Part shown: positions 5,108 to 46,814 of the stretch, piece after piece
Layout of the letters: each line of letters starts with the position of its first letter
How positions within the stretch are numbered: the first letter of the stretch is position 1
NCBI GenBank assembly: GCA_964420405.1
Contig: CAYQTL010000011.1
Coordinates: 268 to 64,267 of the forward strand
Reading direction: 5' to 3'
Length of the DNA stretch: 64,000 nucleotides
From: an uncultured Thermoanaerobaculia bacterium
GTDB taxonomy: Bacteria; Acidobacteriota; Thermoanaerobaculia; Thermoanaerobaculales; Sulfomarinibacteraceae
Notes under the pieces: model-generated
Told to the model about the DNA's origin: nothing
Seen by the model: only the letters and a program-made list of their open reading frames with translations
Databases searched by the model: none
Translations under genes and position numbers: made by a program

Positions 5108-7219
<2,112 letters not shown>

Positions 7220-8839: not shown

Positions 8840-8842
8840 GCG

Positions 8843-13055: not shown

Positions 13056-13176
13056 GAGGGGAATCGGGGTCGGATCCGGGGGGTCGGGTCGGGCACGGCG
13101 CCGGCCCCTGCACGCTGATGGGCGGAGACCCCTGCGCGTCGGGTTGCGCGAGCACGCGGGATGCGCGACGTTTCGT

Positions 13177-13224
13177 CGGGATCGGGATCGGGATCGGGAT
13201 CGGGATCGGGATCGGGATCGGGAT
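13177..13224. repeat. Perfect hexanucleotide microsatellite (CGGGAT)x8, with one GATC every 6 bp
   Basis: Direct reading gives 8 uninterrupted units, 19 bp from the stop of the minus-strand DUF502 gene. Confidence 0.97.
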
Positions 13225-15464: not shown

Positions 15465-15540
15465 GGGCCGTTAGCTCAGTTGGTAGAGCATCGGACTTTT
15501 AATCCGGTGGTCGCTGGTTCGAGTCCAGCACGGCTCACCA
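15465..15540 (+). tRNA. tRNA-Lys (anticodon UUU), CCA encoded
   Basis: Manual cloverleaf: acceptor GGGCCGT/ACGGCTC, D arm GCTC..GAGC, anticodon arm TCGGA-CTTTTAA-TCCGG, T arm GCTGG-TTCGAGT-CCAGC. Confidence 0.9.
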
Positions 15541-15579
15541 TCACCCCGACTGGACCCCTCGACCCTCGATCCGGAGCTG

Positions 15580-15750
15580 TCGGTGGTCGCTGGTTGCTCG
15601 CGGCCCCGGGGGCCGCGGCGACGCCCCCGGACGAGCGAGTGGGTGTAGCGCCGCCCCCCGCCCTCTCCGGTCGGCGGCCTCCCTGCGACCCCCCCGGCGA
15701 CACCCACGGATCGCTCCTCCGGGGACGTGCGAGTCCCGCACGGCTCACCA
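15580..15750 (+). pseudogene. Decayed duplicate of the tRNA-Lys 3' half, split by a 134-nt insertion
   Basis: tcggtggtcgctggtt (15580-15595) and cgagtcccgcacggctcacca (15730-15750) match the tRNA-Lys variable/T-arm/acceptor 3' part (ccggtggtcgctggtt|cgagtccagcacggctcacca). The interruption falls inside the T loop. Confidence 0.7.
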
Positions 15751-15832: not shown

Positions 15833-15910
15833 GACCCCATCGTCTAGCCAGGTCTAGGACACCGGCCTTTCACGCCGGCAACGCGGGTTCAAATCCCGCT
15901 GGGGTCGCCA
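15833..15910 (+). tRNA. tRNA-Glu (anticodon UUC), CCA encoded
   Basis: Acceptor GACCCCA/TGGGGTC, anticodon arm CCGGC-CTTTCAC-GCCGG, T arm CGGGT-TCAAATC-CCGC. Confidence 0.88.
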
Positions 15911-15914
15911 TCCA

Positions 15915-15973
15915 ATTCGAGCCGAGAGCCGTACGGGCGGGTCGAACCCGCCCGCACGGCTCTCGGCTCGAAT
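15915..15973. repeat. 27-bp near-perfect hairpin directly after tRNA-Glu
   Basis: Arms attcgagccgagagccgtAcgggcggg / cccgcccgCacggctctcggctcgaat with loop tcgaa. There is a single A.C mismatch, which would be G.U on the minus strand. The apex gggTCGAAccc resembles a tRNA T arm. Confidence 0.85.
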
Positions 15974-16047
15974 CGGATTCGGATCCGCCGTTCCGGCGGC
16001 CCCGGTGAGGTTCCCCTCGCCACGGGGCGTGGAGACTGAGTCTGAGC

Positions 16048-18151: not shown

Positions 18152-18242
18152 GCCGTCCTCCCCGTGATGCCGCATCGCGTCAAGCGTACCACTTCGCGCA
18201 CCGGCTGGCCGGCTCTGGGTTGTCGTGATTCCCCAGAGCGAG

Positions 18243-18297
18243 AGAGGACGGCGGCGGCGCGCGGATGCCCGGCATCCGCGTGCCGCCGCCGTCCTCT
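18243..18297. repeat. 27-bp near-perfect GC hairpin between the Lon-N gene and the acyl-CoA dehydrogenase gene
   Basis: Arms agaggacggcggcggcGcgcggatgcc / ggcatccgcgTgccgccgccgtcctct, with a single G.T position. Confidence 0.85.
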
Positions 18298-18304
18298 GTC
18301 GCTG

Positions 18305-19299: not shown

Positions 19300-21036
19300 A
19301 TGGCAAGCATCACGGCGGTGGCCCTCGTGCTGGCGGCGGCCGCCGTCGCGGCGGCCCAGGCGCCGCCGGCCCCGGCCCCCGAGCCGGAGCCCGTCGGCGG
19401 GCTCGGGTTCCGGGACGAGGTCCAGGTGACGGTGGTCAACGTCGACGTGTACGTGCGCGACGGCGACGGCAACCCGGTCCGGGGCCTGGAAAGGAGCGAC
19501 TTCCGGATCCTGCAGAACGGCGTCGAGATGGAGATCTCCAACTTCGCCGAGCTGGACCGGGAGGTGTTCGTGCAGCGCTTCGAGGAGCCGGCGGTCCCCG
19601 AGGCCGTGCCGCTGGCGAGGCCGGACGAGCCGCCGCCGGAGGAGCCCGAGGAGGTCGCCATCCAGCCGATCTGGATGGTCGTCTACATCGACAACGAGAA
19701 CATCCACCCGCTGCATCGCAATCGCGTGCTGCGTCAGGTGCGGGAGTTCGTGGTCGAGAACCTCCGGCCGCCCGTGCAGATGATGGTCGTGTCCTACCAG
19801 CGGTCGCTGAAGGTGCTGCAGCCGTTCACCGCCGACTCGCGGGCCGTGAACTCGGCGCTGCGGGAGGTGACGCTGTACACGGGCGCCCGGGTCGAGCGCG
19901 ACAGCTCGCGACGAGACCTGCTCGACGACATGATGGAGGCCGACGTCCAGGACTACGGGCGCCAGGGCGAGATCGACACCCGCACCGGCGCCTCGGGCAG
20001 GATCTTCCAGCAGATCATGTCGTGGGCCGAGGAGCAGGCCAACGACCTGCGCTTCACCCTCGACGCCATCGAGCAGGTGGTCGGGATGCTCTCGGGTCTG
20101 CCGGGACGCAAGTCGATCGTCTACGTCTCCTCGGGCCTGCCGATGACACCGGGGATCGGCCTGATGCACCAGTACGCCGTCACCTTCAACGACAACTCGA
20201 TCCTGTCGCGCCGCAGTCGGGTCGACCGGACGCGGGACTTCCGCTCCCTGACCTCGACCGCCAACGGCCAGGAGGTGACCTTCTACACCGTCGACGCGTC
20301 GGGTCTGGGCACCCTCGAGGGCTTCTCCGCCGAGGACCGGTACGGGATGGACCCGACCGCGGCGTCGATCGGCTCGCGCGACCTGCAATCGTCGCTGCGG
20401 TACATGGCCGACGCCACCGGTGGCCTCGCGATCGTCAACACCAACGACATCTCGGCGGGCCTCGGGCGGATCCGCGACGATCTCTTCAGCTACTACTCGG
20501 TCGGCTACGCCATCACGTCGGCCGGCCTGGACCGCGTCCACCGGATCGAGGTCGAGCTTCCGGGCCACAAGGGGTACGAGCTGCGCTACCGCCAGCGGTA
20601 CGTCGAGAAGTCGCTCGAGACGAAGATCCAGGAGCGCGTCTACTCGGCGCTGATGGTGGACCTGACGGACAACCCGATGGACCTCGAGCTGACGGTCGGC
20701 CAGCCGGCGCCGGCCACCGGCTCTCGCTGGACCGCTCCTGTCCACCTGTCGTTCCCTCTCGACCGCGTCGCGCTGATGCCCGTGGGAGAGGAGTACCTGG
20801 CGACGATCGTTCTCTTCGTCGGCGCCCGCGACGCCGACGGCCGCCAGTCGGAGATCCAGCGGCAGGAGCACGAGATCCGGATCCCCGCCGCCGACATCGA
20901 GGCGGCGCGCGGCACGCGGTTCGGGATCGACACCCAGCTGCTGCTCGACGAGGGCCGCCACCGGATCTCGATCGGGCTGATGGACAGCATCACCCGCCAG
21001 GCGTCCTACGAGCAGATGACGCTGAGCGTGCCGTAG
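19300..21036 (+). CDS. Secreted VWA-like protein (VWFA-related acidobacterial-type domain)
   Basis: Signal peptide MASITAVALVLAAAAVAAAQA. Then FRDEVQVTVVNVDVYVRDGDGNPVRGLERSDFRILQNGVEMEISNF followed by IWMVVYIDNENI..., the pattern I associate with the TIGR03436-type family. Confidence 0.7.
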   Translation: MASITAVALVLAAAAVAAAQAPPAPAPEPEPVGGLGFRDEVQVTVVNVDVYVRDGDGNPVRGLERSDFRILQNGVEMEISNFAELDREVFVQRFEEPAVPEAVPLARPDEPPPEEPEEVAIQPIWMVVYIDNENIHPLHRNRVLRQVREFVVENLRPPVQMMVVSYQRSLKVLQPFTADSRAVNSALREVTLYTGARVERDSSRRDLLDDMMEADVQDYGRQGEIDTRTGASGRIFQQIMSWAEEQANDLRFTLDAIEQVVGMLSGLPGRKSIVYVSSGLPMTPGIGLMHQYAVTFNDNSILSRRSRVDRTRDFRSLTSTANGQEVTFYTVDASGLGTLEGFSAEDRYGMDPTAASIGSRDLQSSLRYMADATGGLAIVNTNDISAGLGRIRDDLFSYYSVGYAITSAGLDRVHRIEVELPGHKGYELRYRQRYVEKSLETKIQERVYSALMVDLTDNPMDLELTVGQPAPATGSRWTAPVHLSFPLDRVALMPVGEEYLATIVLFVGARDADGRQSEIQRQEHEIRIPAADIEAARGTRFGIDTQLLLDEGRHRISIGLMDSITRQASYEQMTLSVP

Positions 21037-21072
21037 CCGCACCGCGACCCGCGGGCGCCTGCGGAGCGGGTT

Positions 21073-21219
21073 CCGATCCCGGACCGGGTCCCGATCCCGA
21101 TGTCGTGGACCGGGGGAGCCGGGCGACGCCGTACGCGTGCGTCCCGGCTCCCGGGCCGCCCGGCTCGCCTCCGTCGCTGGCCCGCGATGTCATCGGGATC
21201 GGGATCGGATGAGGGATCC
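21073..21219. repeat. Inverted GATC-hexamer arrays flanking an ~85-bp core
   Basis: Left arm ccgatcccggaccgggtcccgatcccgatg; right arm catcgggatcgggatcggatgagggatcc. The arms are reverse complements (cccgatcccgatg / catcgggatcggg). Confidence 0.85.
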
Positions 21220-21233
21220 GCGGCGTCGCGCGG

Positions 21234-22967
21234 CTACTCGTGGGAGGCCATGACGCGCCAGGCGACGAGGCGCTCGTTCATGGCGCGCAGTCGTCGGCAC
21301 AGCAGCCGGCACAGCAGCGACAGGAACTGCACCGCGGCGTCCGGGTCCATCGACAGGACCTCCTCGAGCAGGGCGCGGCTGATCGAGAACACGGTCGCCC
21401 CGTCGACGTGGGCCCTGGCGTCGGCCGAGCGGGGCTGCTCGTCGATCAGGGCCATCTCGCCGAACACCTCGCCGCGGCCGAGAATCGACAGGCACTCCTC
21501 GCCCATGCCGGGGACCATCCGCGAGATCCGGACCGCCCCGTCCACCACGATGTAGAGGCCGGCGCCGGGCTCGCCCTCGGCGAACACCAGCGCGCCGGGC
21601 GGGAACGCCTCCTCGGTGGAGTAGGTGGCGAGCAGCCGCAGCTCCTGGGCCGACAGCCCCTGCTCCCGCAGCAGGTCGACCTTGGCCTTCTCGGAGAGGC
21701 GGATCCGGTGGCCGGCGGAGGCGCCGGCGACCTCCCGCGCGGGCCGCATGGAGCCGTCCGGCACCCGCAGCAGCTCGCTCATCTGCGAGTTGGCGGAGCG
21801 CACCTTGGCCGCCAGCGTCTGCCAGAAGCTCCACAGCAGGCCGACCGCCAGCTCCCGGTTCTCCTGGGTCGCCTTCTCGAGCGCGTCGGACGGCACCACG
21901 AACACCGAGCCGCTGCCGACCCCGAAGGCGGTCGCCGAGCGCGGGCTGCGGTCGAGCCAGGACACCTCGCCGAACAGCGATCCGTAGCCGAGGGTGGTCA
22001 GGATCTGGGTTCCGACGGACGTCCGCCGGGTGATGTGGATCGTGCCGCGACGCACGACGTACAGGTCGCGGCCGTCGTCGCCCTCCCGGAACACCACCTC
22101 CGCGTGCTCGAACGCCCGGGGCTGGACGAGCTGCGCCAGCTGGATCAGCTGGTCGTCGCTGAAGTGGCGGAACAGCCCCATCGCCCGCAGCTCGGTGGCG
22201 TAGCGCAGCAGGTTGTCGTGCTGGCGGCCGGCGGGCCGGGTGGCGGGGCGGCGGTGGCGCAGCCGTGCGCCGGTGAACACGCGGGCGTGGCTCAGTGCGA
22301 CGTGGTCGCAGGCGCGCTGGAGGTGGCTCGTCCTGCCACGCACGATGGCGTCGAGCTCGCCCGGGGCGAGGTGGCACAGCCGGGCGAGGGTCTCCACGCG
22401 GCGGCGCTCCTGCTCCTGCTCGCGGGCCGACCGCCAGGTCGCGAGGAGCATCGCGTCGACGGCGTGCTCGAGGGCGGCGTCGAAGCTCTCGGTCTCGAGC
22501 GCGGCGCGGGACGCCTCCACCGCCAGCCGGTAGTCGAGGGGGTTGAGCCGCCGCGCCTGGACCAGCTCCTGGAACCCGGAGTCCGGGTCGTCGTGCCGCA
22601 GGTACAGGTAGCCGGCGGCGGCGTAGGCCAGGTAGCTGAACGGCGTCCGCACCTTGGCGAGGTCGATCATCTCCACGGCTCGCTGGAACTCGCCCCGCGC
22701 CTCGAAGATGTGGGCCATGCCGAGGGCGTGGGAGGCCTCGAGGTTGCGGCGCTTGAGCTCACGGTCGAAGTCCTCGAGCCCTTCCTCCTCCCGGACCTTG
22801 AGGGCCTCCTCGCGGAGCGCCGCCCCCTGGGGCGAGAGCACCGCCGCGATCTCGAGCAGCTCGGCGGCCTCGGTGGGCCGCCGCAGGTGCCGCAGCCGGC
22901 GGGCCAGCTCGACCAGCCGGTCGACCATCGAGGGATGGGGCAGGATCGACTCGGGCATCTGGACCAT
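21234..22967 (-). CDS. TPR-like N-terminal region plus two cyclic-nucleotide-binding domains
   Basis: Two CAP_ED-type motifs (LFGEVSWLDRSPRSATAFGV; VFGEMALIDEQPRSADARA). ATG 22967 (MVQMPES) lies next to an AT-richer upstream region. The track ORF extension to 24089 is P/A/S/R-rich and overlaps the opposite-strand peptidase gene, so it is rejected. Confidence 0.8.
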   Translation of the reverse strand: MVQMPESILPHPSMVDRLVELARRLRHLRRPTEAAELLEIAAVLSPQGAALREEALKVREEEGLEDFDRELKRRNLEASHALGMAHIFEARGEFQRAVEMIDLAKVRTPFSYLAYAAAGYLYLRHDDPDSGFQELVQARRLNPLDYRLAVEASRAALETESFDAALEHAVDAMLLATWRSAREQEQERRRVETLARLCHLAPGELDAIVRGRTSHLQRACDHVALSHARVFTGARLRHRRPATRPAGRQHDNLLRYATELRAMGLFRHFSDDQLIQLAQLVQPRAFEHAEVVFREGDDGRDLYVVRRGTIHITRRTSVGTQILTTLGYGSLFGEVSWLDRSPRSATAFGVGSGSVFVVPSDALEKATQENRELAVGLLWSFWQTLAAKVRSANSQMSELLRVPDGSMRPAREVAGASAGHRIRLSEKAKVDLLREQGLSAQELRLLATYSTEEAFPPGALVFAEGEPGAGLYIVVDGAVRISRMVPGMGEECLSILGRGEVFGEMALIDEQPRSADARAHVDGATVFSISRALLEEVLSMDPDAAVQFLSLLCRLLCRRLRAMNERLVAWRVMASHE

Positions 22968-23304
22968 CCATTCTATTTCGGACGGCCTGTGTGGGTCAAT
23001 TGCGGCTCGGTCGTCCCGTCGCGGATGCGTGACGTCGACTCCCGCATCCGCGCCGGCTGACGAGCCCCGACGGGAGCGGAGGGCCGGCGGCCTGGCGGAC
23101 CGGATCGGAAGCGGCGGCGCCCCGGCCGTCTTCTCGAGGGCACGCACGGACACCGACGCGGGTGCGGCGGCCGACTCGGCGGATGGGTTCGCGTTTCCGG
23201 CGGGATTTGCGAAACTCCCCTCGGGAACGCGACGTACGGCCCCCGTGTTGTGCAGCGCATGCGCCACCGCCGTGGCGCGAGCTCCACCGTCGAAGGGAAC
23301 CCGG

Positions 23305-25098
23305 GTGACGATCCACTCCGCCATCGTCCGCCTCGCCGCAGCCGCTGTCGGCGCCGCCGCCTTCGTGACCCCGGTCCGGGCCGCCGAGACCATGAGCCTC
23401 GCGGAGGTGCGTCCGGGCCAGCGGGGGGTGTGCGTCACGGAGATGGACGGCGGCGAGCGGGTCGAGCTCCCGGTGACGGTGCTCGGGACCACCGGCGCCG
23501 CGGCGCCGGAGAGTGAGCTGGTGCTCGTGCGGCTCGAGGACGAGCGGTTCCGGCACACCGGGATCATCGCCGGCATGAGCGGCTCGCCGGTGTACGTCGA
23601 CGGCCGCCTGCTCGGCGCGGTGGCGTACGGCTGGGCGTTCTCCAAAGAGCCGATCGCCGGGGTGACGCCGTTCGAGCGGATGGTCGGCCTCCGGCCGGAA
23701 GCGCCGGTCGGTTTCGCGGCCGCGCCTGCCGGCACGGCCCCCGGGGCGCGGCCGGAGCCGGAGGCGCTGGCGGCCGCGGTGCACGACGGCGGCGTCGGGC
23801 GGATGGTGCTCGACTGGCTCGTGCCGGAGGCGTCGGGCCCGGCCGAGCGGCTCCCGCTGGTGGTCGGCACGTCGGGCCTCGGCGAGCTCGGCGGATGGCT
23901 GTCCGACGGGTTCCGGCGGCTCGGCTGGATGGCGGCGCCGGCCGGCGGCGGTGCGCCGGTGGCGGGCGACGGGGGGCTGCGGCCGGGCGGCATGGTGGCG
24001 GGGGTCCTTGTGGACGGCGACGCGACGGTGGCGGTCGGCGGGACCGTGACCGAGGTTCGCGGCGAGGACGTGTGGGCGTTCGGCCACATGGTGTTCGGCG
24101 CCGGCAGGATCGTGCTCCCGTTGGCGCGCGCGTCGGTGGTGGCGGTGCTGCCCTCTCAGGCGCAGTCGTTCAAGTTCTTCCGCACCGGGGAGATGCTGGG
24201 CGCCTTCGGGGCGGACCGGCAGCACGGCGCCTGGGGCCGGCTCGGGGCCGATGCCCCCATGGTGCCCGTGTCGCTCGCGGTGGACGGCCGCGGCTACCGG
24301 TTCCGGGCGGTCCGGCACGAGGTGCTGACCCCCCTGCTGGTGGCCTACCTCGCCCAGACCGGCTACAGCGCACGCGGACGGACCTTCGGCGGTCAGACCG
24401 TGCGGCTGGGAGTCGACATCCACCTGGAGGACGGGCGATCGGCGTCCCTCGAGCAGGTCTTCGCCGGCGGCGACGCGGCGGCGCAGGCCTCGGCCTACGC
24501 GTCGGCGGTCGCGGCGTTCGTCACCACCAGCGCGTTCGAGCGGCCGCCGGTCGCGGCGGTGGACCTGCGGATGGACAGCCGCGAGGAGCTGGAGGGTAGC
24601 GAGCTGGTGGACGTGGTGCCGGCGCGCTGGACGGTGGCGCCCGGCGAGGAGCTCGAGGTGCGCGTACGGCTGCGGCCGAGAGGCGGGCCGGAGAGCGTCG
24701 AGCGGCTCACGGTGCGGGTTCCGGAACGGACCCCCGAGGGGCGGCTCGACCTGGTGGTGGCGGACGGAGCGTCGTGGAGCGCCTACGACCTGCGGATGCG
24801 GCCGCCGCGGCCGGCGTCCTTCGGCGACGAGCTGCGCCTGCTCGACCGGCTCGAGCCGGCCTCCCGGCTGGTGGCGGCGCTCGAGCGGCCAGAGGCCGGC
24901 GTGGCGATGGGGGCCGGCGTCCTGCCGGTGCCCGCCGGGGTCGCCCTGCAGCTCAAGGCGGGCCTCGGGCCCAACCTGGCGGCAACCGCCTGGGGCGTGG
25001 TGGGCCGCGCCGAGCGGGACCTGGGAGTGCCGGTGGTCGGCGCGGTACGGATTCGGCTGCAGGTCGACTCCGCGGCGGGCGACCGGCGGAACCGATGA
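23305..25098 (+). CDS. Secreted peptidase S55 (SpoIVB-like) domain protein
   Basis: GTG 23305 follows GAAGGGA. Signal peptide VTIHSAIVRLAAAAVGAAAFVTPVRA. Serine motif IIAGMSGSPVYVDGRLLGAVAYGW. Confidence 0.6.
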   Translation: MTIHSAIVRLAAAAVGAAAFVTPVRAAETMSLAEVRPGQRGVCVTEMDGGERVELPVTVLGTTGAAAPESELVLVRLEDERFRHTGIIAGMSGSPVYVDGRLLGAVAYGWAFSKEPIAGVTPFERMVGLRPEAPVGFAAAPAGTAPGARPEPEALAAAVHDGGVGRMVLDWLVPEASGPAERLPLVVGTSGLGELGGWLSDGFRRLGWMAAPAGGGAPVAGDGGLRPGGMVAGVLVDGDATVAVGGTVTEVRGEDVWAFGHMVFGAGRIVLPLARASVVAVLPSQAQSFKFFRTGEMLGAFGADRQHGAWGRLGADAPMVPVSLAVDGRGYRFRAVRHEVLTPLLVAYLAQTGYSARGRTFGGQTVRLGVDIHLEDGRSASLEQVFAGGDAAAQASAYASAVAAFVTTSAFERPPVAAVDLRMDSREELEGSELVDVVPARWTVAPGEELEVRVRLRPRGGPESVERLTVRVPERTPEGRLDLVVADGASWSAYDLRMRPPRPASFGDELRLLDRLEPASRLVAALERPEAGVAMGAGVLPVPAGVALQLKAGLGPNLAATAWGVVGRAERDLGVPVVGAVRIRLQVDSAAGDRRNR

Positions 25099-25113
25099 CA
25101 AAGGACGGCTGAG

Positions 25114-27204
25114 ATGTGGCGGACAGGGCGCGTGTGGGGGGCGACGGTGCTGCTGGCGGCGGGAACGGCCACCGCGGCGTCGACCGAGCGGTGGGTCGTG
25201 GACACGACCCCGCAGCTGCTCGGGGGAACCGGTCACGGAGTGGCCGTCACCACCGACGGTCGGCTCGAGGCGGTCGACGTGTGGCGCGACGGCCCCGCGT
25301 TCGAGGAGCCGGTGGTGTTGACGGCGGCGAGCTTGCCGGGCGGCGATCTCGTGGTCGGGACCGGCCACCCAGCGCGCCTGTATCGGGTCGACGGTGACCG
25401 ACGGGAGCTGCTGGCGGAGATCCCCGGCGACCAGGTCACGGCGCTGCTGGCCCTGCCCGACGGCGACCTTGTGGTGGCGGCGGCGACGCCAGCGGCCCTC
25501 TACCGGCTGCGCGGCGGCTCCCTCGAGCGGCTCGGCGGCCTGGACGACGGCGCGATCTGGGACCTGGCGGTGATGGACGGCGAGGTGGTCGCGGCCGGCG
25601 GCACGCCGGCGACCCTGTACCGGCTCGGGGAGAACGGGCTCGAGCGGTGGCTCGAGCTGCCGGACGCCCACGCCCGCTGCCTGCTGCCGGTGGACGGCGG
25701 CGTGGTCGTGGGGACCTCCGGCGAGGGCCTGGTGTTCCGCGTGACCGCCGGAGGCGTCCCGGTCCTGCTGGTGGACAGCGCCTTCACCGAGATCTCGGAC
25801 CTGGTGGCGGCCGCAGACGGCACGCTGTGGGCGACGGCCCTGGTGGGCGAGCCGGTGCGACCCTCCCGGCGCAGCGGCGACGGAAACGGCAGCGACGACG
25901 GTGACGGCGACGACGACACCGGCGCCGCTGCGACCGCCACCGTCGAGCTGGACCTGCCGAAGGTCAACGGCTCGACGGCCACCTCCGAGGTCGTGCGGCT
26001 GACTCCCGAGGGAGCGGTGCTCGGCGTCCACCGGTTCACCAGCCAGGTGGCGTCGGCGCTGGCGGTCGACGGCGACGGTGTGCTCGTCGGCACCGGCTTC
26101 GAGGGCGAGATCTGGCGGTTCGTGGAGTCGGGAGGAGCGCGACTGGCGACCGTCGACGCGGTGCAGGTCGTGGCGTTTGCCGACGGCGGACGGGCGGCCC
26201 TCACCCAGGGTCCGGGCGGCGTGCTGCGCCGCTCCGCGCCGGAGCGTCCGGCCACCTTCCGCGGGCCCGCCAACAGCTTCCCGCGGCCCGCCCGAATCGG
26301 GCGGTACGCGGTGTCGGTGGCTGCGGGAGACGCCCGGATCCGGTTCCGCTCGGGCGCGTCGGCGAAGCCCGACGACAGCTGGCTGCCGTGGTCCGAGTGG
26401 CTCGACGCCACCGCGGGAGCGGTGCCGGTGCCTCCGGTGGCGTCCCTGCAGTGGGAGCTGGAGCTCGGCCCGGGTGCGGTGGTGGAGGCGGTCGAGGTGG
26501 CGTACCGCGAGGTCAACCTCCCGCCGCGGTTCACGTCGGTGACGGTGGAGGAGCCCGGGGTCGTCTACCTGATGGCGCCGCCGCCCAGCGGCCCGGTGCT
26601 CGAGGCCGAGCATCCCGACGTCAGCGGCGTCTTCGCGGTGCTCGAGGATGGCGACCGGCGCTCCAGGGCCACCAAGGGCAAGAAGTTCTGGCGGGTCGGC
26701 TACCGCACCGTCAGCTGGGAGGTCGAGGACCCGAACCAGGACGCGCTGCGGTTCGAGATCGAAATCGAGCGCGAGGACGGCTTCGAGCTGCCGGTCCGGG
26801 ACCGGGTCGAGAGCACCCAGCTGGCGATCGACACCACGGCCGTGCCCGACGGGCGGTACCGGTTCCGGCTGCGGGCGAGCGACGCCGCTTCCAATCCCGG
26901 CAACGCGATGGTCGGCACCGCGGTCAGCGAGTGGTTCGAGGTCGACAACGGGCCGCCGGAGATCACGATCCGGCGCGACGGGGGGAGCTGGGAGGTCCGG
27001 GTGCGGGACGCCGGCAGCTCCGTCCGGCAGGTGGAGTACTCTCGCGACGGCGACCGCTGGCACCCGCTGGCGGCGGTGGACGGCGTGCTCGACGGCCCGG
27101 AGGAGCGGTTCCGGTTCCCGGCCGAGGACGGGCGGCATCTGGTGGTGGTGCGCGCCATCGACCGCCACCACAACCGGTCGACCGCGTCGGTCGTCGAGGA
27201 GTAG
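25114..27204 (+). CDS. Secreted repeat (propeller-like) protein with Ig-like C-terminal region, hypothetical
   Basis: Signal peptide MWRTGRVWGATVLLAAGTATAAS. Repeated DG.LVVGT / LYRL / DG.VVAAG strands. The C-terminus reads YRFRLRASDAASNPG...VRAIDRHHN. It lies 15 nt after the S55 gene. Confidence 0.6.
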   Translation: MWRTGRVWGATVLLAAGTATAASTERWVVDTTPQLLGGTGHGVAVTTDGRLEAVDVWRDGPAFEEPVVLTAASLPGGDLVVGTGHPARLYRVDGDRRELLAEIPGDQVTALLALPDGDLVVAAATPAALYRLRGGSLERLGGLDDGAIWDLAVMDGEVVAAGGTPATLYRLGENGLERWLELPDAHARCLLPVDGGVVVGTSGEGLVFRVTAGGVPVLLVDSAFTEISDLVAAADGTLWATALVGEPVRPSRRSGDGNGSDDGDGDDDTGAAATATVELDLPKVNGSTATSEVVRLTPEGAVLGVHRFTSQVASALAVDGDGVLVGTGFEGEIWRFVESGGARLATVDAVQVVAFADGGRAALTQGPGGVLRRSAPERPATFRGPANSFPRPARIGRYAVSVAAGDARIRFRSGASAKPDDSWLPWSEWLDATAGAVPVPPVASLQWELELGPGAVVEAVEVAYREVNLPPRFTSVTVEEPGVVYLMAPPPSGPVLEAEHPDVSGVFAVLEDGDRRSRATKGKKFWRVGYRTVSWEVEDPNQDALRFEIEIEREDGFELPVRDRVESTQLAIDTTAVPDGRYRFRLRASDAASNPGNAMVGTAVSEWFEVDNGPPEITIRRDGGSWEVRVRDAGSSVRQVEYSRDGDRWHPLAAVDGVLDGPEERFRFPAEDGRHLVVVRAIDRHHNRSTASVVEE

Positions 27205-27220
27205 CGCGGTCGTCGGGCGA

Positions 27221-27535
27221 CTCCGATTCCGGTCCCGATGGATGGCAACTCGGAGTCAGCGTCAGCCTCAGGGTCAGCGCCCGGCGACGGCCCCGTCCGC
27301 GTCCGTGCCCGTGCCCGAAGGGTGCCAGACATGGCCCGCGACACCGACCGGTCGCCGCTGTCGTCGAGGATGCTGTTGGGTGGGGCACGGACGAGGGCAC
27401 GGACGGGGACGCGGGAGGGGGCGACCGCGGTCGCCGTCGGGCTGCCGCTGTCGCTGACCCTGCCGCTGTCGCTGGACGCCACCGACTCCATCGGGAACGG
27501 GATCGGGAACGGGATCGGGATCGGAAAGACGGGGA
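27221..27535. repeat. ~315-bp composite palindromic intergenic element (modules H-S-P ... S'-H')
   Basis: Left arm ccgattccggtcccgatggatggcaactcggagtcagcgtcagcctcagggtcagcg. The right arm reverse complement reads cccgatcccgttcccgatggagtcggtggcgtccagcgacagcggcagggtcagcg. Inner inverted cgtccgtgcc motifs are also present. Confidence 0.8.
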
Positions 27536-27577
27536 CGAACGGCACGGACGATCCCGGCCGCGGCGGAGGGGATCGGA

Positions 27578-27585
27578 TAGAATCG
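27578..27585 (+). promoter_or_regulatory. -10 box TAGAATCG placed 7 nt before the coaD ATG (leaderless-type)
   Basis: gaTAGAATcgcgaccATG. No SD sequence fits in the 7-nt gap. Confidence 0.55.
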
Positions 27586-27590
27586 CGACC

Positions 27591-28106
27591 ATGGCAGCGG
27601 AGAAGCGTCCGGTCGCCGTCTACCCGGGGTCGTTCGACCCGTTCCACCTCGGGCACGTGGACATCGTCTCCCGGGCCACCCAGATCTTCGGCCGGGTGGT
27701 GGTGGGCGTGCTCGAGAACACCTCCAAGGACGCCCTGTTCACTCCCGCCGAGCGGGCGGAGATGCTGCGCGATCTGTACGCCGGCCACCCGCGGGTCGAG
27801 ATCCACTCCTTCAGCGGCCTGCTGGTGAAGTTCCTCGAGCAGATCGGGGCCACCATCATCGTCCGCGGCATGCGGGCCGTCTCGGACTTCGAGTACGAGT
27901 TCCAGATGGCGCTGATGAACCGCCGCCTCGACGCCCGGGTCGAAACTGTGTTCCTGACGCCCAAGGAGGAGTACACCTACCTGTCGTCGCGGCTGGTGCG
28001 GGAGGTGGTGGCGCTCGGCGGCGACGTCAGCGGTCTCGTCCCGGAGCCGATCCGGCTGCGCCTCGAGGCGCGGCTCCGCGGCCCCGACCGTCCGCCGAGC
28101 CCGTGA
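27591..28106 (+). CDS. coaD: Phosphopantetheine adenylyltransferase
   Basis: Motifs AVYPGSFDPFHLGHVDIV and RGMRAVSDFEYEFQMALMN. It uses an internal ATG of track ORF 26388..28106. Confidence 0.92.
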   Translation: MAAEKRPVAVYPGSFDPFHLGHVDIVSRATQIFGRVVVGVLENTSKDALFTPAERAEMLRDLYAGHPRVEIHSFSGLLVKFLEQIGATIIVRGMRAVSDFEYEFQMALMNRRLDARVETVFLTPKEEYTYLSSRLVREVVALGGDVSGLVPEPIRLRLEARLRGPDRPPSP

Positions 28107-28135
28107 GCCGTCGCGGCTGATCGGAGGATGGCACC

Positions 28136-29308
28136 GTGCGGCTGACGGTGCTCGGGCCCGGCCACCCGTTCCGGGGCGGGATCGCCACCACGACCACGCG
28201 CCTGGTGGCGGCGCTGCGCGACGGCGGACACGACGTCCGCTTCCTGGTTCCGACGCGGCAGTATCTCCGGTGGCTCTTTCCGGGCGCCGGCGACCGCGAT
28301 CCGGCGGCCTGCCCGCGGCTGGAGGGCACCGAGGACGCGTTGGATCCCATGTGGCCGCCGGCGTGGCCGCGGGGTCGCGCCGGGGCCCGGTCGCCAACGG
28401 CCGATGCGTGGCTCGTGCCGTACTGGACGTGGGCGTGGGCGGGATGGTGGCGCTATCTCCTCGGCACCGCGGACCGCCCGCCGGTGGTGGCGGTGGTCCA
28501 CAACCCTGCCGACCACGACGCCGGACCTCTCCAACGGCTCGCTGCTCGGCTCGTGCTGTCGCGCTGCGAGGGACTGTTCACCCACGGCCGGGCCCTCGCC
28601 GAGCGGCTGCGGGACGACTACCCGGGAACGCCGGCGTCGTCGTGCCCGCTGCCGCCGACCACGCGGTTCGAGCTGCCGCCTCGGGAGCAGGCGAGGGCAC
28701 AGCTCGGCCTGCCTGCCGGCGACCGGGTGGCCCTGTTCTGGGGCCTCGTCCGACCGTACAAGGGCGTCGACCTGCTGCTGGAGGCGCTCGCCGCGCTGCC
28801 GCGCGAGGCCGCCGATTGGCGGCTGGTGGTGGCCGGCGAGCCGTGGGGGGGCGCCGCGGCCGCGCTCCCCCGGCGGGCGGCCCGGCTCGGGATCGGGGAC
28901 CGGGTGCGCCTCGAGCTGCGCTGGGTGCCGGAGGCCGAGGTGCCGGCGCTGCTCGCGGCGGCGGACCTGCTGGTGCTGCCCTACCGCGCCGGCTCCCAGT
29001 CGGCGGTCGCGCCGATCGCCCTCGCCCACGGCGTGCCGGTCCTCGCGACCGCGGTCGGCGGCCTGCCGGAGCTGGTCCGGGACGGGGTCAACGGCGTCGT
29101 CGTGCCGCCCGGCGACCCGGCCGCCCTCGCCGGCGCCCTCGCCGGGCTGGACCGCGGGCGGCTGGCCGCGCTGGCGGCCGCCGCTCCGGCCACGGTGCCG
29201 ACGTGGTCCGAGTACGCCTCGCGCGTCGACGACCTCGTCACCCGCGTCGTCGAGCGTCGCTCCGGAGAGCCGCGTCCTCGTCCGGTCGGATCCGGCTGCC
29301 GGGGGTGA
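28136..29308 (+). CDS. Glycosyltransferase family 4 (GT1-type fold)
   Basis: GTG start 7 nt after GGAGGA. Motifs PYKGVDLLLEAL and GSQSAVAPIALAHGVPVLATAVGGLPELVRDGVNGVVVPPGD. Confidence 0.8.
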   Translation: MRLTVLGPGHPFRGGIATTTTRLVAALRDGGHDVRFLVPTRQYLRWLFPGAGDRDPAACPRLEGTEDALDPMWPPAWPRGRAGARSPTADAWLVPYWTWAWAGWWRYLLGTADRPPVVAVVHNPADHDAGPLQRLAARLVLSRCEGLFTHGRALAERLRDDYPGTPASSCPLPPTTRFELPPREQARAQLGLPAGDRVALFWGLVRPYKGVDLLLEALAALPREAADWRLVVAGEPWGGAAAALPRRAARLGIGDRVRLELRWVPEAEVPALLAAADLLVLPYRAGSQSAVAPIALAHGVPVLATAVGGLPELVRDGVNGVVVPPGDPAALAGALAGLDRGRLAALAAAAPATVPTWSEYASRVDDLVTRVVERRSGEPRPRPVGSGCRG

Positions 29309-29490
29309 TGGCGGAGGGGATCCGATCCGGCGATCGCGACCCGGTTGCTGCGGCCGATGCAGCGGCCGACATCGGGCACGGACGCGGACGCTTGGGGCTG
29401 GCGACGGGAATCCGTGGGGCGGGGAGCGGGCCGCGCGCGGCGCCGCCGCGACACGGTACTCCTCGGGGACGCCGGGCGGACCGGCGACGC

Positions 29491-29661
29491 GCTGGATGCT
29501 GCCGCTGCCGCTGGACGCGACCTGCACCATCGGGATCGGGATCGGGATCAGGATCGGGAACGGGAACGGGATCGGAGGCCGAGGCGACCGGGTGGCGGAG
29601 CTCGGGGGAGGTCCTTCGGCTCCCGCCACGCCTCCGGCGCGTCGCTCGCTCAGGATGACGG
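29491..29661. repeat. Repeat-family copy: module S' + hexamer array + module B
   Basis: gctgccgctgccgctggacgcgacctgcaccatc + (gggatc/gggaac) x8 + ggtccttcggctcccgccacgcctccggcgcgtcgctcgctcaggatgacgg. Confidence 0.85.
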
Positions 29662-29704
29662 TGCGGGGGTGAGAGCGAGCCGGCGAGTCGGAACGGCTCG
29701 ACGC

Positions 29705-29732
29705 GAAACGGCCCGCACCGGAGTGCGGGCCG
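29705..29732 (-). terminator. Intrinsic terminator of the XRE-TPR-secreted operon
   Basis: On the minus strand: cggcccgcac-tccg-gtgcgggccg followed by tttcg. Confidence 0.6.
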
Positions 29733-29757
29733 TCGAATCGCGTGGTGTGTCCGCGGC

Positions 29758-30765
29758 TCAGCGCACCAGGCTGCGGATCAGGTCGACGGCCCTCTCGTGG
29801 TCGAGGCCGTCGGTCAGAGGCAGCGAGCGGATGTCGGACCACAGCTCGCCTTCGAGCTGGATGTACTCGACCGCCTGGTCGGCGTCCCAGTGCAGCACCA
29901 CCGACAGGCCGTGGCCCACCTCGGCCTCGGCGGAGGCCAGCGGCAGGTCGGGGTTGACGTAGAGCATCTCCTGGGTGCGCAGGATGATCACGGTCCGGCG
30001 CCGCTTCGGGTCGAGGTCCGGCTCGTCGGCGAGGCCCGCCCGGAGCTCGAGGATCTGGATCAGGCAGTCGGCGAGGTCGGTCGCCATCACGTGGGGGTTG
30101 CCGCTCTGGGGGTCGACGAACAGCCTCGGCGAGGCCAGCTCGGTGACGTCGTCGATGCCCGGGCAGCCGATGCCGTAGGGCAGCAGCTCGGCGAGGGCCA
30201 CCGGGTCCCGGTCGCCGAGCGCCGGCACGCCGTCCTCGCCGACGGGGACCGACTGGTACATGGCGACGCCGGCGTCGTAGCCGCTGTCGCGCTGCCACCA
30301 GACCACGTGGAGGAACGCCATCTGCACGTCGACCGTCGTCGGGTTGCCGTCGTCGTCGAACCAGTCGGCGGTGACGGTGGTGCGGTGGAACAGCATCTCG
30401 GGGCTGTGGGCGACGGTGCCGTCGCCGCCGGCGAGCACGTACGGGCCGTACCAGGTCTCGTCGTGGTACCAGGCGAGCTCGACCCGGGTGTCGGGCTCGA
30501 TGCCGCTCTGCCAGACGACGTACAGGCCGCCGGTTGCGGCGTCGGCGTCGAGGTGGATGGCCGCGGCGTCGGTCGAGGCGGTCAGCGGGACGGTCAGGTC
30601 GCGGACCGTCCCGCCGGGCCCCCGCTCGGTGATCACGATACCGGCGTCGGCGGCGTAGGCGGCGCGGTACAGGGTGCCCTGACGGGTCAGGGCCATGTCC
30701 GCGGCGCCGGCGCCGGCGGCGACGGCGAGAAGCACAGCGACAAGCAGTGCGCGTCGCATGGTCAT
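29758..30765 (-). CDS. Secreted hypothetical protein (335 aa)
   Basis: The ATG 30765 (MTMRRALLVAVLLAVAAGAGAA, a signal peptide) overlaps the TPR gene stop by 4 nt. I recognise no family. The track ORF extension to 31296 is rejected. Confidence 0.7.
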   Translation of the reverse strand: MTMRRALLVAVLLAVAAGAGAADMALTRQGTLYRAAYAADAGIVITERGPGGTVRDLTVPLTASTDAAAIHLDADAATGGLYVVWQSGIEPDTRVELAWYHDETWYGPYVLAGGDGTVAHSPEMLFHRTTVTADWFDDDGNPTTVDVQMAFLHVVWWQRDSGYDAGVAMYQSVPVGEDGVPALGDRDPVALAELLPYGIGCPGIDDVTELASPRLFVDPQSGNPHVMATDLADCLIQILELRAGLADEPDLDPKRRRTVIILRTQEMLYVNPDLPLASAEAEVGHGLSVVLHWDADQAVEYIQLEGELWSDIRSLPLTDGLDHERAVDLIRSLVR

Positions 30766-37100: not shown

Positions 37101-37118
37101 GGAGCCGTGGAGGTGAGC

Positions 37119-40100
37119 ATGGCGTGCTCCCATTCCCCCGGATCGAGCTTCCTCCGGCGTCTCGCGTGGGCGTCGGTCCTGATCATGGCGGGGACGTCGG
37201 TCCCTGCGGCCGCCCAGGCGCCGTGTCTGGACTGGGTCGACGACCTGCACAACTCGTCGGACAACTGCCTGTCGCACCCGGCGATCCCCCGCTACCTCAT
37301 GAGCCACCTGCTCGACTGGAACGGGACGCCGTACTACGTGGTCGACAACGGCAACAACCTCGAGTTCTGGGACATCGGCACCAACCCGCTGGATCCGGTG
37401 CGGTGGGAGTTCAGCTCGTTCGGGGTCCCCAACCAGGGCGACTCGGACTACGACCTGCTCACCTTCTCGGTCTGCGACGGCTGCCGCTTCGGCACCGCGA
37501 GCTACAAGCTCGGCCTGGTCCTGTTCGACCTCGGCACCGGGACCCGGCCGCGGGTCGAGGGGAGCACCTTCCTGCAGGGCGCCCCGATCGGCGCGTTCAC
37601 CTTCGAGTCGGGCAGCTCGCAGTACGTCATCACCAAGGGGCTGCCGGACAGCTGCACCGGCGGCGGCTCGACGCTGTACGAGGTCTCCCGCGACGGCGCC
37701 GACGTCGTCCTCGACCGGCTCAGCTGCGTCGAGCTGCCCGGCGGGGCCACCTTCCAGCCGGCCGGTGGCGTCTCGATCGACGGGCCCGACGGCCAGTACC
37801 TGTACCTCGCCAAGACCACCTCCCCGATCTCGGTCTTCAAGGTGATCCCGGCGGGCGGCTCCATCAGCCTCCAGTACGTGGACGTGGGCGGCGACCCCCG
37901 GCTGCGGGCGGTGATGCAGTTCGGCAAGGGCATGTCCTACGACGAGTCCCGCGACCTGCTCGCGACGGCCTACGAGAGCCGCGGCCTGACGTTATGGGAC
38001 GTGTCCAACCCGGCGAGCCCCCAGGAGATCTGGTCGGATGCGAACCTCGTCGCGAGCCGGGTGGCCCTCGGGCCGGGCTTCATGCATGTCACGGGCCCGA
38101 GCCTGGGTGACGTCTACTCCTACGACATCTCCAACCTCTCCAACCCGGTGCTGGTGGACCCCGACTTCTGGGACCTCGACAACAGCTGGAACGAGAACTG
38201 CTCGCTCGCCACCAACTACGACGGCATCTTCCACCCGACGGAGCCGATCGCCTACGTGGCGCGGTTCGCCAAGGACCAGATCATCGACTACCGGCCGTGC
38301 GGCGGCGGCGTCGCCCCGACCGCGGCCGTGTCGCTCGAGCCCGCGATCGCCTTCCCGGGCGACACGGTGACGGTCGGCAACGTCTCGCTGGGGGCCTTCA
38401 CCCGCTCCGCGGTGTGGGTCACCAGCGGCGACGATCCCCACGGCACGGTGGTCGGAGGCTCGGACGACCTGTCGGCCGGGACCCCGTCGTCGCGGGTGTT
38501 CCCGCTCCCGCAGGACCTCCAGCAGGGCCTCGGCTTCTGGGCGCACGTGGCGGTCGAGTCGGACGAGTTCCCGTACACCCCGGGCGCGACCCCCGACCAG
38601 ATCGACTCGGTGACGGTGGGCATCGACCGCACCCCCGAGGTCGGCATCGACCAGAGCGACCCGGCGCCGATCACCGGCGAGACGGTGACGTTCACGGCCG
38701 TCGCCGAGGGCAATCCACCCTCGGACGCCTACCTGTGGACCGTGACCGAGCCCGGCGGCCAGCCCACGGCGCTGGACATCGTCGGACCCCAGGTGCAGGT
38801 GGAGCTCTCCGAGAGCGGGGAGTGGGCGGTCGACGTCAGCGTGAGCTACCTCCACCAGGGGCTGACGGGAGGGCCGTACGTGGCCACCGCCGGCCTCGAC
38901 CTCGACATCAGCTCGGTCGCCGCGGCCCTCGAGGTGCTGCCGGCGAGCCCGCTGCACAACGAGCCGATCACGCTCAACAACCTCTCGGCCGTGGCCTCCG
39001 GCGCGACCCTCGACCTCGACTTCGACGTGCTGAACGCCTCCGGGACGAGCGTCGTCAACGAGCTCTCGTTCTGCGACGGTGCCGGCACCATCTCCACCGA
39101 CTGCGAGATCCCGGCCGAGACCCTGACGCCGGCGACCTACACCTTCCAGCTCACGGTCACCAACACCGACACGGGCGACCTCTCCACCGCCTCCGAGCAG
39201 GTCCAGGTGCAGGACGGCAGCCTGCAGCCGGTGATCCAGGTGTCCGACGCGACCCCCGACATCGGCAAGGTCATCACGTTCACGATCGGCGGCGTGCCGT
39301 CGGTGGAGCGAACCACCTGGAACTTCGGCGGCCCGGGCTGCTCGCCCTACGCCGTCACCGAGGTCTGCGAGCCCGGGATCTTCGGCAACTGCCTCGCCCA
39401 GACCTACTCCTACGCCACCGCGGGGGCCAAGACGGCCCAGGTGACCATTCGCTACAACAGCAACGACTTCGGCCCCTACCAGATCAACCTCGACGTCAAC
39501 AACACCGGCAGCTGCACCGGCGGCGGCGGCGGTGGTGGTGGCGGCGGCGGCGGCGGGACCTGCACCTACACCATCAGCCCGACGTTCGGCTTCGCCGACG
39601 CCCCCGGCGGCAGCGGGGCCTTCTCGCTCTCCACCCAGAGCGGGTGCGGCTGGAACGCCTCGTCGAACCGCAGCTGGCTCACCGTCAGCCCGACCAGCGG
39701 CAACGGCTCGAGGACCATCAGCTGGCAGGCGGCGTCGAACCCGGCCGAGGAGCGCACCGGCACCATCACCGCCGGCGGCAAGAGCTATACCGTCACCCAG
39801 GGCGGCCAGCCGCAGTGCGAGTACACCCTGTCGGCGACCACCAGTACCGTCTCCGCGACCGCCGGCACCGGCACCGTCACGGTCTCCACCACCTCGGGGT
39901 GCGAGTGGACCGCCATCTCCAGGGACGGCTGGATCCGGGTGACGTCGCCGGCCGACGGCAGCGGCGTCGGTTCCGGCACGGTGCGCTTCGCCTACGACGA
40001 GAACCCGTGGCAGGGTGAGCGCGAGGGGATCCTCGAGATCGCCGGCAACACCTACACCCTGGTCCAGAACCCGGTGATCCCGGCCAACTTCCAGATCTCG

Positions 40101-42796: not shown

Positions 42797-42824
42797 GGGG
42801 CGGCCCCGCGGGGCCGCCCCTTTC
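42797..42824 (+). terminator. Intrinsic terminator of the giant gene
   Basis: ggggcggcc ... ggccgcccc followed by tttcc. Confidence 0.75.
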
Positions 42825-42854: not shown

Positions 42855-43078
42855 CCGCCCCCGATCCCGATGGCAGCGACACTGTCAGGGTCAGCGGCGG
42901 CCGGGTCGCGGACAGAGGCAGAGGCGACCGGCCTGCGGGCATCGTGGGGGGTCCTTCGACTCCCGGCACGCCTCCGGCGTGCCGCTCGCTCAGGATGACG
43001 GCAGGAGAGGCGGCCTCCGGCGTGCCGCTCGCTCAGGATGACGGCAGGGGAGGCCGCCTCCGGCGAGGATGGCGGCGC
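42855..43078. repeat. Repeat-family copy (H-S-B) ending in a 43-bp tandem repeat of about 2.5 units
   Basis: cccgatcccgatggcagcgacactgtcagggtcagcg ... ggtccttcgactcccggcacgcctccggcgtgccgctcgctcaggatgacgg. The unit cctccggcgtgccgctcgctcaggatgacggcagg.gagg starts at 42971, 43014 and 43057. Confidence 0.85.
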
Positions 43079-46650: not shown

Positions 46651-46814
46651 GAGATCGTAGGGCATAGATCGCAGACGGATTTCGGTGCGTCGTGAGATGC
46701 GCGTCTGTGGCGGATTCGAGGAGCAGTACTCCGAGTACGGGCCGAGAATCCGCCGCGAACGGGCGCTCACGACGCCCGAAAGGCGTCGCCAATCGATGCC
46801 CTGCACCCTCCTGG
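46647..46814. mobile_element. 168-bp MITE-like palindromic element, copy 1
   Basis: ctaggagatcgtagggcatagat...atcgatgccctgcaccctcctgg. It aligns over its full length with the reverse complement of 60875..61042. Its own halves are inverted repeats of each other. Confidence 0.8.

Follow-up and report, generated by a model that had tools for sequence, protein, structure and literature searches.

A mosaic of hexanucleotide arrays and a REP-like hairpin module recurs in the intergenic DNA of an uncultured Thermoanaerobaculia lineage

Interspersed mosaic repeats of intergenic DNA are a well-known kind of bacterial element (PMC3184786, PMC3049150, PMC3733652). In bacterial interspersed mosaic elements (BIMEs), repetitive extragenic palindromic (REP) units of 20-40 bp with a GTAG or CGTC tag are combined with other short motifs, and REPs are biased towards convergent genes (PMC3184786). 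REPs with a CGTC tag occur in multiple phyla without a dedicated transposase; they have a stem of 8-9 bp that starts with A-T pairs, a loop of 4-5 nt and a short CCA-like tail, and mostly form head-to-head dimers, inward-facing tags being rare among the four families CGTC-1 to CGTC-4, the first of which is equated with dRS3 (Di Nocera et al. 2013, PMC3733652). BOX elements are also biased towards convergent junctions and vary between strains in module number, more so in larger copies (PMC3049150). Here we describe a family of intergenic repeats in a stretch of 64,000 nucleotides (the window) from an uncultured Thermoanaerobaculia bacterium (contig CAYQTL010000011.1, positions 268 to 64,267), in which degenerate hexanucleotide arrays are joined to a REP-like hairpin module. 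Dispersed intergenic arrays of short tandem units are known genome-wide from the short tandemly repeated repetitive (STRR) sequences of heterocystous cyanobacteria, which resemble the present arrays but are heptamers, belong to another phylum and are not joined to a REP-like module in fixed order. On balance, and with slightly better than even confidence, we take the present family to be a lineage-restricted, non-coding mosaic repeat akin to BIMEs, BOX and the Neisseria intergenic mosaic elements (NIMEs), which is tolerated at gene 3' ends and grows by slippage, duplication and recombination.

A preliminary description of this DNA had proposed four recurring modules, H, S, P and B. The family proved to be real: all four modules are present where they had been placed, and their recurrence is far above chance. 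(GGGATC)3, allowing up to three mismatches, has 24 matches to H in the window, where shuffled sequence would give 0.32, in keeping with the description of H as (GGGATC/GGGAAC)n arrays; the P core CGTCCGCGTCCGTGCC is found seven times against 0.88 expected, and the B core CGCTCGCTCAGGATGACGG five times against 0.08. The exact S 26-mer occurs only once in the window, and S was therefore redefined as an array of CTG triplets with a period of 6. In this form S does recur, with three runs of at least four CTG triplets at 6-nt spacing against 0.015 expected, one of which (11607-11630) lies inside a coding region. Syntenic loci of relatives were retrieved through homologues of CoaD. Such CTG runs number five in L010, a close strain with ~92% nucleotide identity to the window (L010-L012 belong to the same lineage), and three in L009, whose CoaD is 84% identical; none is present in L013 or L014 (CoaD identity 77-79% for L013 and L014/L015). 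A scan of the genome contigs with an S-module pattern gave eight matches, which is the level of chance. What had been overlooked is the 6-nt period common to H, S and P. Tandem Repeats Finder (TRF) gave period 6 for every array-like module, with arrays at 13176, 27255, 27303, 27441, 27490, 29498, 29529, 58554, 58610 and 61056, and the three modules are best written as degenerate hexanucleotide arrays, H as (GGGAWC)n, S as (CTGNCN)n and P as (CGTSCS)n, i.e. (CGTCCG/CGTGCC)n. In a periodicity scan, period-6 arrays were confined to intergenic DNA, in the window and in the two relatives closest to it, and none was found in 53 kb from more distant relatives.

Alignment of the copies revealed a unit S'-GGACGCGACC..CACCATC-H-GGAGGCNGAGGCGACC...-B with a sharp right end at GGATGACGG. 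Comparison with L010 and with the copy E1 extended this unit leftward to P' and to C, a small perfect palindrome (GGCGACCGCGGTCGCC), giving P'-C-S'-H-link-B as the preferred module order. The left end fades into arrays of variable length, and the link-B module measures ~50-85 nt. Copies are arranged as single units, tandem units or inverted dimers, and P, C, S, H, link and B recur across these arrangements as the modules of REP/BIME mosaics do.

One full unit is seen in E3 (29375-29661, + strand), between the stop codon of a GT4 glycosyltransferase gene (29306-29308) and a conserved hairpin (29709-29740). It consists of P' (29375-29392), a spacer, S' (29495-29528), H (29529-29576, eight hexamers), link (29577-29610) and B (29611-29661). 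E4 (42855-43078, + strand), 3' of a 1887-aa gene and its hairpin (42808-42822), has a short H'-S (42855-42900) followed by link-B (42915-43001), and the 3' part of B is repeated in tandem (42969-43065; TRF period 43, 2.3 copies). E7 (13176-13224, + strand) is a solitary perfect (TCGGGA)8 between convergent genes for an extracytoplasmic function (ECF) sigma factor and a DUF502 protein (TRF score 98, 100% matches). E3, E4 and E7 have no inverted partner. E1, E2 and E5, to which no strand is assigned, are inverted dimers of unit parts. E1 (27221-27553), a composite in the form of an imperfect palindrome, separates coaD (ATG at 27591) from a 696-aa gene (stop at 27204). It has H' (27224-27239), S (27240-27285) and P (27292-27324, ending in CCCGAAGG) on the left, M (27325-27380) in the centre, and P' (27381-27415), C (27416-27440), S' (27441-27489), H (27490-27527) and a P'-like stretch (27529-27553) on the right. 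E2 (58466-58733) lies between convergent genes for a major facilitator superfamily (MFS) transporter and an aminotransferase, and reads B' (58473-58520), link', H' (58554-58568), S (58569-58595), H (58610-58645), link and a diverged B (58680-58726). E5 (21057-21222) fills its convergent junction with a hairpin that has H' (21073-21101) and H (21192-21209) as its arms and a unique GC-rich core between them. E6 (61057-61327, + strand) is a diverged unit with an inverted B', composed of P (61057-61075), a CAG-period-6 array (61076-61130), a degenerate H (61164-61199), link-B (61200-61285) and B' (61309-61327), which pairs with B; it adjoins an unrelated 169-nt palindrome (60874-61042).

BLASTN of the intergenic regions gave identities of 76-90% between loci. 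E3 29561-29654 matched E2 58473-58566 with 84% over 94 nt, E3 29575-29661 matched E4 42915-43001 with 85% over 87 nt, E1 27460-27524 matched E3 29499-29563 with 86% over 65 nt, and E3 matched E6 61166-61284 with 76% over 120 nt. Two further fragments had been assigned to the family. The first is a true solo P module (2571-2601, + strand), CCGCGTCCGCGTCCGTGCC-AGTT-CCCGAAGG, in the 61 bp that separate two genes of the same orientation; it contains an exact 16-mer match and is 93% identical to E1 over 28 nt by BLAST. The second, at 15596-15729, was rejected, as BLAST revealed no significant similarity there apart from a duplicated 3' end of tRNA-Lys. The last 21 nt of that tRNA (15520-15540) are repeated at 15730-15750 (20/21 identical), and the two copies bracket ~190 bp of GC-rich DNA with an inverted repeat of its own, GTGGGTGT...ACACCCAC; the region 15520-15750 looks like the scar of an integration at a tRNA 3' end.

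The position of the copies is strongly non-random. The window (~72% GC) holds core genes including nuo, atp, purA and coaD, several genes for FAD oxidases, the ECF sigma factor gene and two tRNA genes, and all statements on gene context rest on a gene map derived from GC content at third codon positions (GC3). The nearest named relatives of its CoaD are proteins from metagenome-assembled genomes (MAGs) labelled Methylomirabilota or Acidobacteria. Family members occupy 6 of the 9 convergent junctions compared to 2 of the 39 tandem or divergent junctions (Fisher p=1.7e-4), the latter two being E1 and the solo P. The copies are extragenic, as had been reported, and sit almost exclusively downstream of genes, with the enrichment at 3' ends and convergent junctions that is typical of REPs and BIMEs. 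By summed lengths against the gaps of the gene map, elements make up roughly a fifth of the window's intergenic DNA. In L014 and L013 the GT4 stop codon is followed directly by the hairpin, with no E3-type element between. Because E3 is placed between the stop codon and a hairpin that adjoins the stop in relatives, it very probably belongs to the 3' untranslated region (UTR) of the glycosyltransferase gene. E1 ends ~40 nt before a conserved TAGAAT box. A -10-like box (TAGAAT, TACAAT and TAGAAT) is present 7-8 nt upstream of the coaD start in the window (27570-27593), in L009 (9985-10003) and in L014 (9985-10003), which suggests a leaderless promoter and a leaderless coaD mRNA.

Comparison with the relatives revealed that the copies vary between strains and that the composite is narrowly distributed. 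The E1 orthologue of L010 (6800-7130) is 94% identical. At the E3 site of L010, S' is 18 nt (three hexamers) longer and H 12 nt (two hexamers) shorter, and an inverted short B' and a second unit follow, making two units against one in the window. Variation of internal module number between strains is also the behaviour of BOX, a likeness of behaviour and not of descent. L009 has arrays at the same two intergenic sites, but their hexamers differ, being (CACTGC)n/(CAGNGN)n and (CGGACG)n, and neither H nor B was found there. No arrays were found in L013 and L014/L015, where the sites are empty or differently occupied. Among all loci retrieved, the composite was seen only in the window and the L010-L012 lineage. 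Paralogues differ by ~15%, more than orthologues do, so most copies are older than the split of the strains, and duplication has been ongoing since. Arrays or B are also where contigs break: the short contigs L011 and L012 begin in them and L010 and L011 finish in them, as expected of multi-copy repeats.

The largest strain difference is a ~800-bp composite in a divergent intergenic region of L010, which reads S'-H-link-B, a 47-bp tandem repeat, P-M-P' and C-S', where the window has only a P'-like remnant. The 47-bp unit (CGCCAGGTTCCAGCCGGAGGGCTTCGCAGGCCGACTCGTAG) is present in ~3.3 tandem copies (L010 2225-2370) and has no counterpart in the window. This presence/absence between close strains, with CACGGAC at both junctions, would fit non-autonomous transposable elements resembling miniature inverted-repeat transposable elements (MITEs) or REP doublets (REPINs), moved by a transposase encoded elsewhere in the genome. 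On this view a transposase would bind the inverted H, S and P arrays as terminal or subterminal repeats, or else B would act as a REP that a REP-associated tyrosine transposase (RAYT) or another enzyme mobilises in the form of single-stranded DNA. We regard such mobility as fairly unlikely, even though it would also agree with the 76-90% identity of dispersed copies, the inverted module pairs in E1, E2 and E5, the empty sites in distant relatives, the CGTC tag on B, the inverted B/B' doublets in E6 and L010, and a strand bias of unpaired units that would suit single-strand transposition. The copies have no common precise termini, left ends fading into variable arrays, and the terminal inverted repeats that every MITE copy should carry are lacking, as E3, E4 and E7 have no inverted partner. 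The apparent 7-bp duplication, CACGGAC, is itself part of the P' array, so that insertion cannot be told from deletion between direct repeats, which explains the junctions equally well; the L013 and L014 sites are too diverged to define junctions for a target-site duplication. A scan of 30 window proteins detected no transposase, integrase or Y1 domain, and CGTC REPs are reported to do without a dedicated transposase (PMC3733652). Finally, the different hexamers at the orthologous sites of L009 favour evolution in place over repeated insertion.

Of the three readings that had been offered, a REP/BIME-like system fits best, on account of the mosaic around a CGTC-tagged REP-like module, the placement at 3' ends and the strain variation. 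Like BIMEs, the elements are extragenic mosaics of a GC-rich REP-like hairpin module and short motifs in variable number and orientation, mostly at 3' ends or between convergent genes and probably transcribed. In contrast to BIMEs, in which hexanucleotide arrays are lacking, they consist mostly of such arrays; a REP measures 20-40 nt, whereas B has 50 nt, of which ~27 nt form the loop; no RAYT is found among the 30 window proteins; and the sequences have no similarity to enterobacterial REPs, in a different phylum and a genome of ~72% GC. With BOX (boxA-boxB(n)-boxC, Streptococcus) the family shares an internal module in variable tandem number, length differences between strains, over-representation between convergent genes, predicted folding and the lack of a clear autonomous partner. 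However, BOX is unrelated in sequence, its modules are ~50 nt as opposed to 6-nt units, and no counterpart of its defined terminal inverted repeats and its target duplications was found in the present elements. The NIMEs and dRS3 of Neisseria are likewise intergenic and mosaic, with a short inverted repeat of the CGTC type interspersed among their repeat blocks, but NIME blocks are 70-200-bp RS units tied to pilin recombination loci, an association not seen here. No description of hexamer arrays combined with a REP-like module was found in the literature searched.

Module B itself recalls the CGTC-tagged REPs as the text of PMC3733652 defines them. On the reverse strand B reads CCGTC-ATCCTGAGC-[27 nt]-GCCGAAGGAC, starting with CCGTC-AT; E3, E4 and L010 all have both the CGTC tag and the initial AT. 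Its 9-nt arms ATCCTGAGC / GCCGAAGGA pair only if tandem G.A mismatches are allowed. Compared to CGTC REPs, the loop of B is 11-27 nt instead of 4-5 nt, the stem is not fully complementary, the tail is CCT or CTC and not CCA, and the inverted doublets in E6 and L010 carry their tags inside. A search of the literature for the B sequence or its canonical form returned only primers.

Both ends of B match a REP-like repeat of ~37 nt with a CGTC tag that is found in other phyla too, a kinship that had been overlooked. A short form of B with an 11-nt loop is found at L010 ~9285-9320, near-identical 37-nt B-like forms occur on two viral contigs of 53-56% GC, and a related form is present in a Gemmatimonadaceae MAG. 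From these short and ~37-nt forms we conclude that B derives locally, with expansion of its loop, from a repeat that is present across phyla. The ~37-nt repeat, which reads CCGTCATCCTGAGCGAGCG(N)GCGAGCCGAAGGATC and has variants that include GTCATTCTAAGCGCAGCGAAGAATC, often occurs as inverted pairs in unrelated lineages (L010 9285-9320; L136 ~6225-6330; L137 ~1838-1950 and ~9622-9700; L003 3100-3200; L006 1940-2030). Its arms, like those of B, can pair when tandem G.A mismatches are tolerated. It has no Rfam match and may correspond to the CGTC-tagged REPs of PMC3733652. In the Gemmatimonadaceae MAG, a near-identical ~360-bp segment on two contigs (L003 2800-3160 and L006 1640-2000) ends in this B-like repeat, which points to another dispersed repeat family in that genome.

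The array ingredients are also found widely. (GGGAWC)4 or longer is present at at least 120 metagenome loci, on contigs from 33% to 77% GC, and in many of these matches the flanking arrays look like coding Gly-Asn-type codon repeats. With this wide GC range and no family junctions, (GGGAWC)4 was discarded as a probe for the family: neither link-B nor the S'-H junction was found among the matches listed. Five unrelated contigs among these matches carry simple (GWTCCC)n-loop-(GGGAWC)n hairpins, four of them in convergent gaps or directly downstream of a gene. As link-B and S'-H are absent from the listed loci, we conclude that the composite family is narrow and that its ingredients, G3N3 arrays and the REP-like B, are widespread.

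The elements had been described as able to fold into very long hairpins. This stands for E1, E2 and E5, which are long though imperfect palindromes with arms 70-75% complementary, and not for E3, E4, E6 and E7. The RNA fold of E1 reaches -191.5 kcal/mol (z -3.3 relative to shuffles) on the + strand and -175.5 (z -3.6) on the - strand; E2 folds at z -2.5 and -3.5 and E5 at z -2.4 and -2.7, while E3 (z -0.98) and E6 (z -1.8) do not stand out. Motifs of the form (G3+N1-7)x4, which could form G-quadruplexes, were detected by pattern search in E7, E1 (H and P'), E3 and E6, and 5 of the 11 such + strand motifs of the 64-kb window lie inside elements. These properties raise the possibility that the elements are functional structures of the 3' UTR, with long GC-rich hairpins and (GGGAUC)n G-quadruplexes that act as terminators or insulators between convergent genes, or as barriers to 3' exonucleases that stabilise the upstream mRNA, as for some REPs. 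The copies lie directly after stop codons and upstream of conserved hairpins, the simple hairpins of the five unrelated contigs have similar locations, and the elements diverge more slowly than synonymous sites. At the E1-equivalent site of L014 (9850-9960, corresponding to window 27205-27590) there is an unrelated ~110-nt AT-rich palindrome (GAGTTCTCAATTCTCAGCTCTTAATTCTCG...) in an otherwise GC-rich genome, so the same spot hosts unrelated hairpin elements in different lineages.

Tests of conserved RNA structure, however, make this explanation unlikely, and the suggestion of a set of structured RNAs did not hold up. The E1 arms align with 100 Watson-Crick, 6 G:T, 5 A:C and 24 other pairs and the E2 arms with 96 Watson-Crick, 4 G:T and 5 A:C; in E5, G:T and A:C number 3 each. 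As G:T and A:C are equally frequent, there is no sign of wobble-tolerant selection on either strand. None of the 23 substitutions between the E1 orthologues of the window and L010 forms a compensatory pair, and for eight link-B copies the covariation term of RNAalifold was unfavourable (+2.25), with double changes in 3 of 21 pairs; compensatory change in the stems was thus found in neither paralogues nor orthologues. E3, E4 and E7 are not long hairpins, and separate compact hairpins already lie 3' of the genes at E3 and E4. The appearance of a selected or young hairpin in this window is given by the unrelated 169-nt palindrome, which folds at z -13.5. Classical termination was rejected, as no hairpin-plus-T-run sites were found in 20500-30500 and the long hairpins lack T tails. 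In a scan against Rfam 15, two tRNAs alone reached the gathering score and the elements had no match at E<=5, in line with the earlier remark that the family was not recognised.

A protein-coding origin has next to no probability. It would consist of cryptic or decayed dipeptide repeats, e.g. (Leu-Ser/Pro/Thr)n followed by (Ile/Asn-Gly)n, and could draw on the open reading frames (ORFs) that gene callers place on L010 copies, on the CTG-NCN frame, which would give Leu plus a small residue, and on the ATG ahead of several S' arrays. However, the best frames of the elements have GC3 of 0.80-0.86 (at most 0.86 in any frame of any element) and GC at second codon positions (GC2) of ~0.7, compared to 0.94 and ~0.5 in window genes. 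CTC accounts for 5 of the 117 codons at the array 'Leu' position compared to 39% of CTG and CTC codons in genes (p=8e-19), and the arrays are dominated by CCA and TCA, which are very rare in genes, and by GGG, which makes up 21% of gene Gly codons. An in-frame TGA separates S' and H in two L010 copies, a TGA stands two codons upstream of an 11-unit array in L009 with no start codon between, and the reading frame differs between the left and right arms of E1. Used as a protein query, the L010 element ORF found no relatives. The most conserved position of the S array is the 'wobble' G of CTG, which excludes a coding cause. A dipeptide-repeat gene was ruled out by codon usage, GC3/GC2 and stop codons, and the earlier statement that no copy encodes a plausible protein is borne out.

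If the family is a tolerated mosaic repeat, as we favour, its arrays would grow and shrink by replication slippage of hexamers, and its units would be rearranged by tandem duplication, inversion and unequal or ectopic recombination between copies, with a transposase as a possible further route of spread. The elements would persist and spread as tolerated or selfish DNA, and they would accumulate at 3' ends because insertions are least harmful there. Being located between stop codons and downstream hairpins, the copies are probably transcribed into 3' UTRs, where exonucleases or polymerases may be slowed, as a side effect, by the imperfect hairpins and the G3N3 tracts. There is no evidence that such an effect is selected.

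Several observations weigh against this interpretation, which draws on ~75 kb of lineage DNA. Three of them go beyond simple neutral slippage. The S arrays are conserved by position: over 124 hexamers C is kept at 84%, T at 73% and G at 90%, compared to a random fourth base (top base 38%), C at 70% in the fifth position and a mixed sixth (49%). That CTG is kept while the fourth base is random is unexpected under neutral decay of a slipped array and hints at a sequence-specific constraint. Secondly, the elements diverge between the window and L010 by 0.07-0.10, which is slower than the 0.16-0.18 of third codon positions and slightly below the 0.12-0.13 of the remaining intergenic DNA. Thirdly, the G-rich strand of unpaired H arrays is always the + strand. 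In addition, the right arm of E1 and the coaD promoter region are identical in the window and L010 over 153 nt, an identity that may stem from function, from gene conversion or from a tract of recent recombination.

The three facts beyond neutral slippage keep alive the idea of a periodic binding platform, in which CTG-N-C-N or GGGAWC every 6 nt would offer multiple sites to an oligomeric DNA- or RNA-binding protein, analogous to TRAP on spaced NAG triplets or a transposase on subterminal hexamers. Apart from the conservation in S, this idea would explain the eleven consecutive CTG triplets with ten different spacers at L009 11722-11787, the conserved wobble-position G and the recurrence of the same array type at the orthologous L009 sites despite different sequence. 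We nevertheless consider it quite improbable. There is no known candidate protein, the arrays differ freely in length from strain to strain, complementary inverted pairs would sequester single-stranded RNA sites, the 6-bp spacing is mismatched to the DNA helical repeat, and higher-order duplications of 18 and 30 nt in the arrays suggest that much of the pattern was copied and not independently maintained. Only a slim chance is likewise given to a more specific form, in which the arrays, with CTG-N-C-N, GGGAWC or CGTSCS every 6 nt, are recognition platforms for an oligomeric nucleic-acid-binding protein or recombinase of the lineage that nucleates on inverted arrays and organises, moves or processes 3' intergenic regions, with B as the cleavage or entry site.

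Hexanucleotide arrays joined in fixed order to a REP-like hairpin would be a new architecture in the catalogue of bacterial interspersed repeats, in an uncultured, high-GC, soil-type lineage where no such repeats have been described. The elements break short-read assemblies of the lineage, three related contigs ending inside arrays; they account for small ORFs called in error and for broken contigs in MAGs of this kind and could serve as strain-typing markers. The position-specific conservation inside arrays is a small but concrete puzzle, and the link of B to a ~37-nt repeat across phyla, even on viral contigs, is a second one that deserves its own study.

Other repeats and insertions were observed near or among these elements. 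In L009 only, a PemK-type toxin gene with a small upstream ORF (8636-9147) is located between the upstream gene cluster and coaD and adjoins the hexamer-array element of that lineage. The 169-nt near-perfect palindrome is present in two copies of opposite orientation (46647-46815 and 60874-61042; 88% identical) with ~39-nt terminal inverted repeats (CTAGGAGGGCGTAGGGCATAGA...). Each copy begins at the TAG stop codon of the upstream gene, at a convergent junction; it looks like a GTAG-containing element of the MITE or REPIN type and is unrelated to the hexamer family. Two compact near-perfect hairpins with 33-nt arms, 94% complementary, and loops of 3 and 1 nt lie at 15910-15978 and 18237-18303, one just after tRNA-Glu and the other between two minus-strand genes, and are candidates for the real terminators of this genome. 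Within the 1887-aa gene (37107-42767), long (CGG)n / (GGCGGT)n arrays at 39518-39556, 40763-40802 and 41072-41129 would specify linkers rich in glycine and would give simple-repeat expansion in this genome a coding counterpart.

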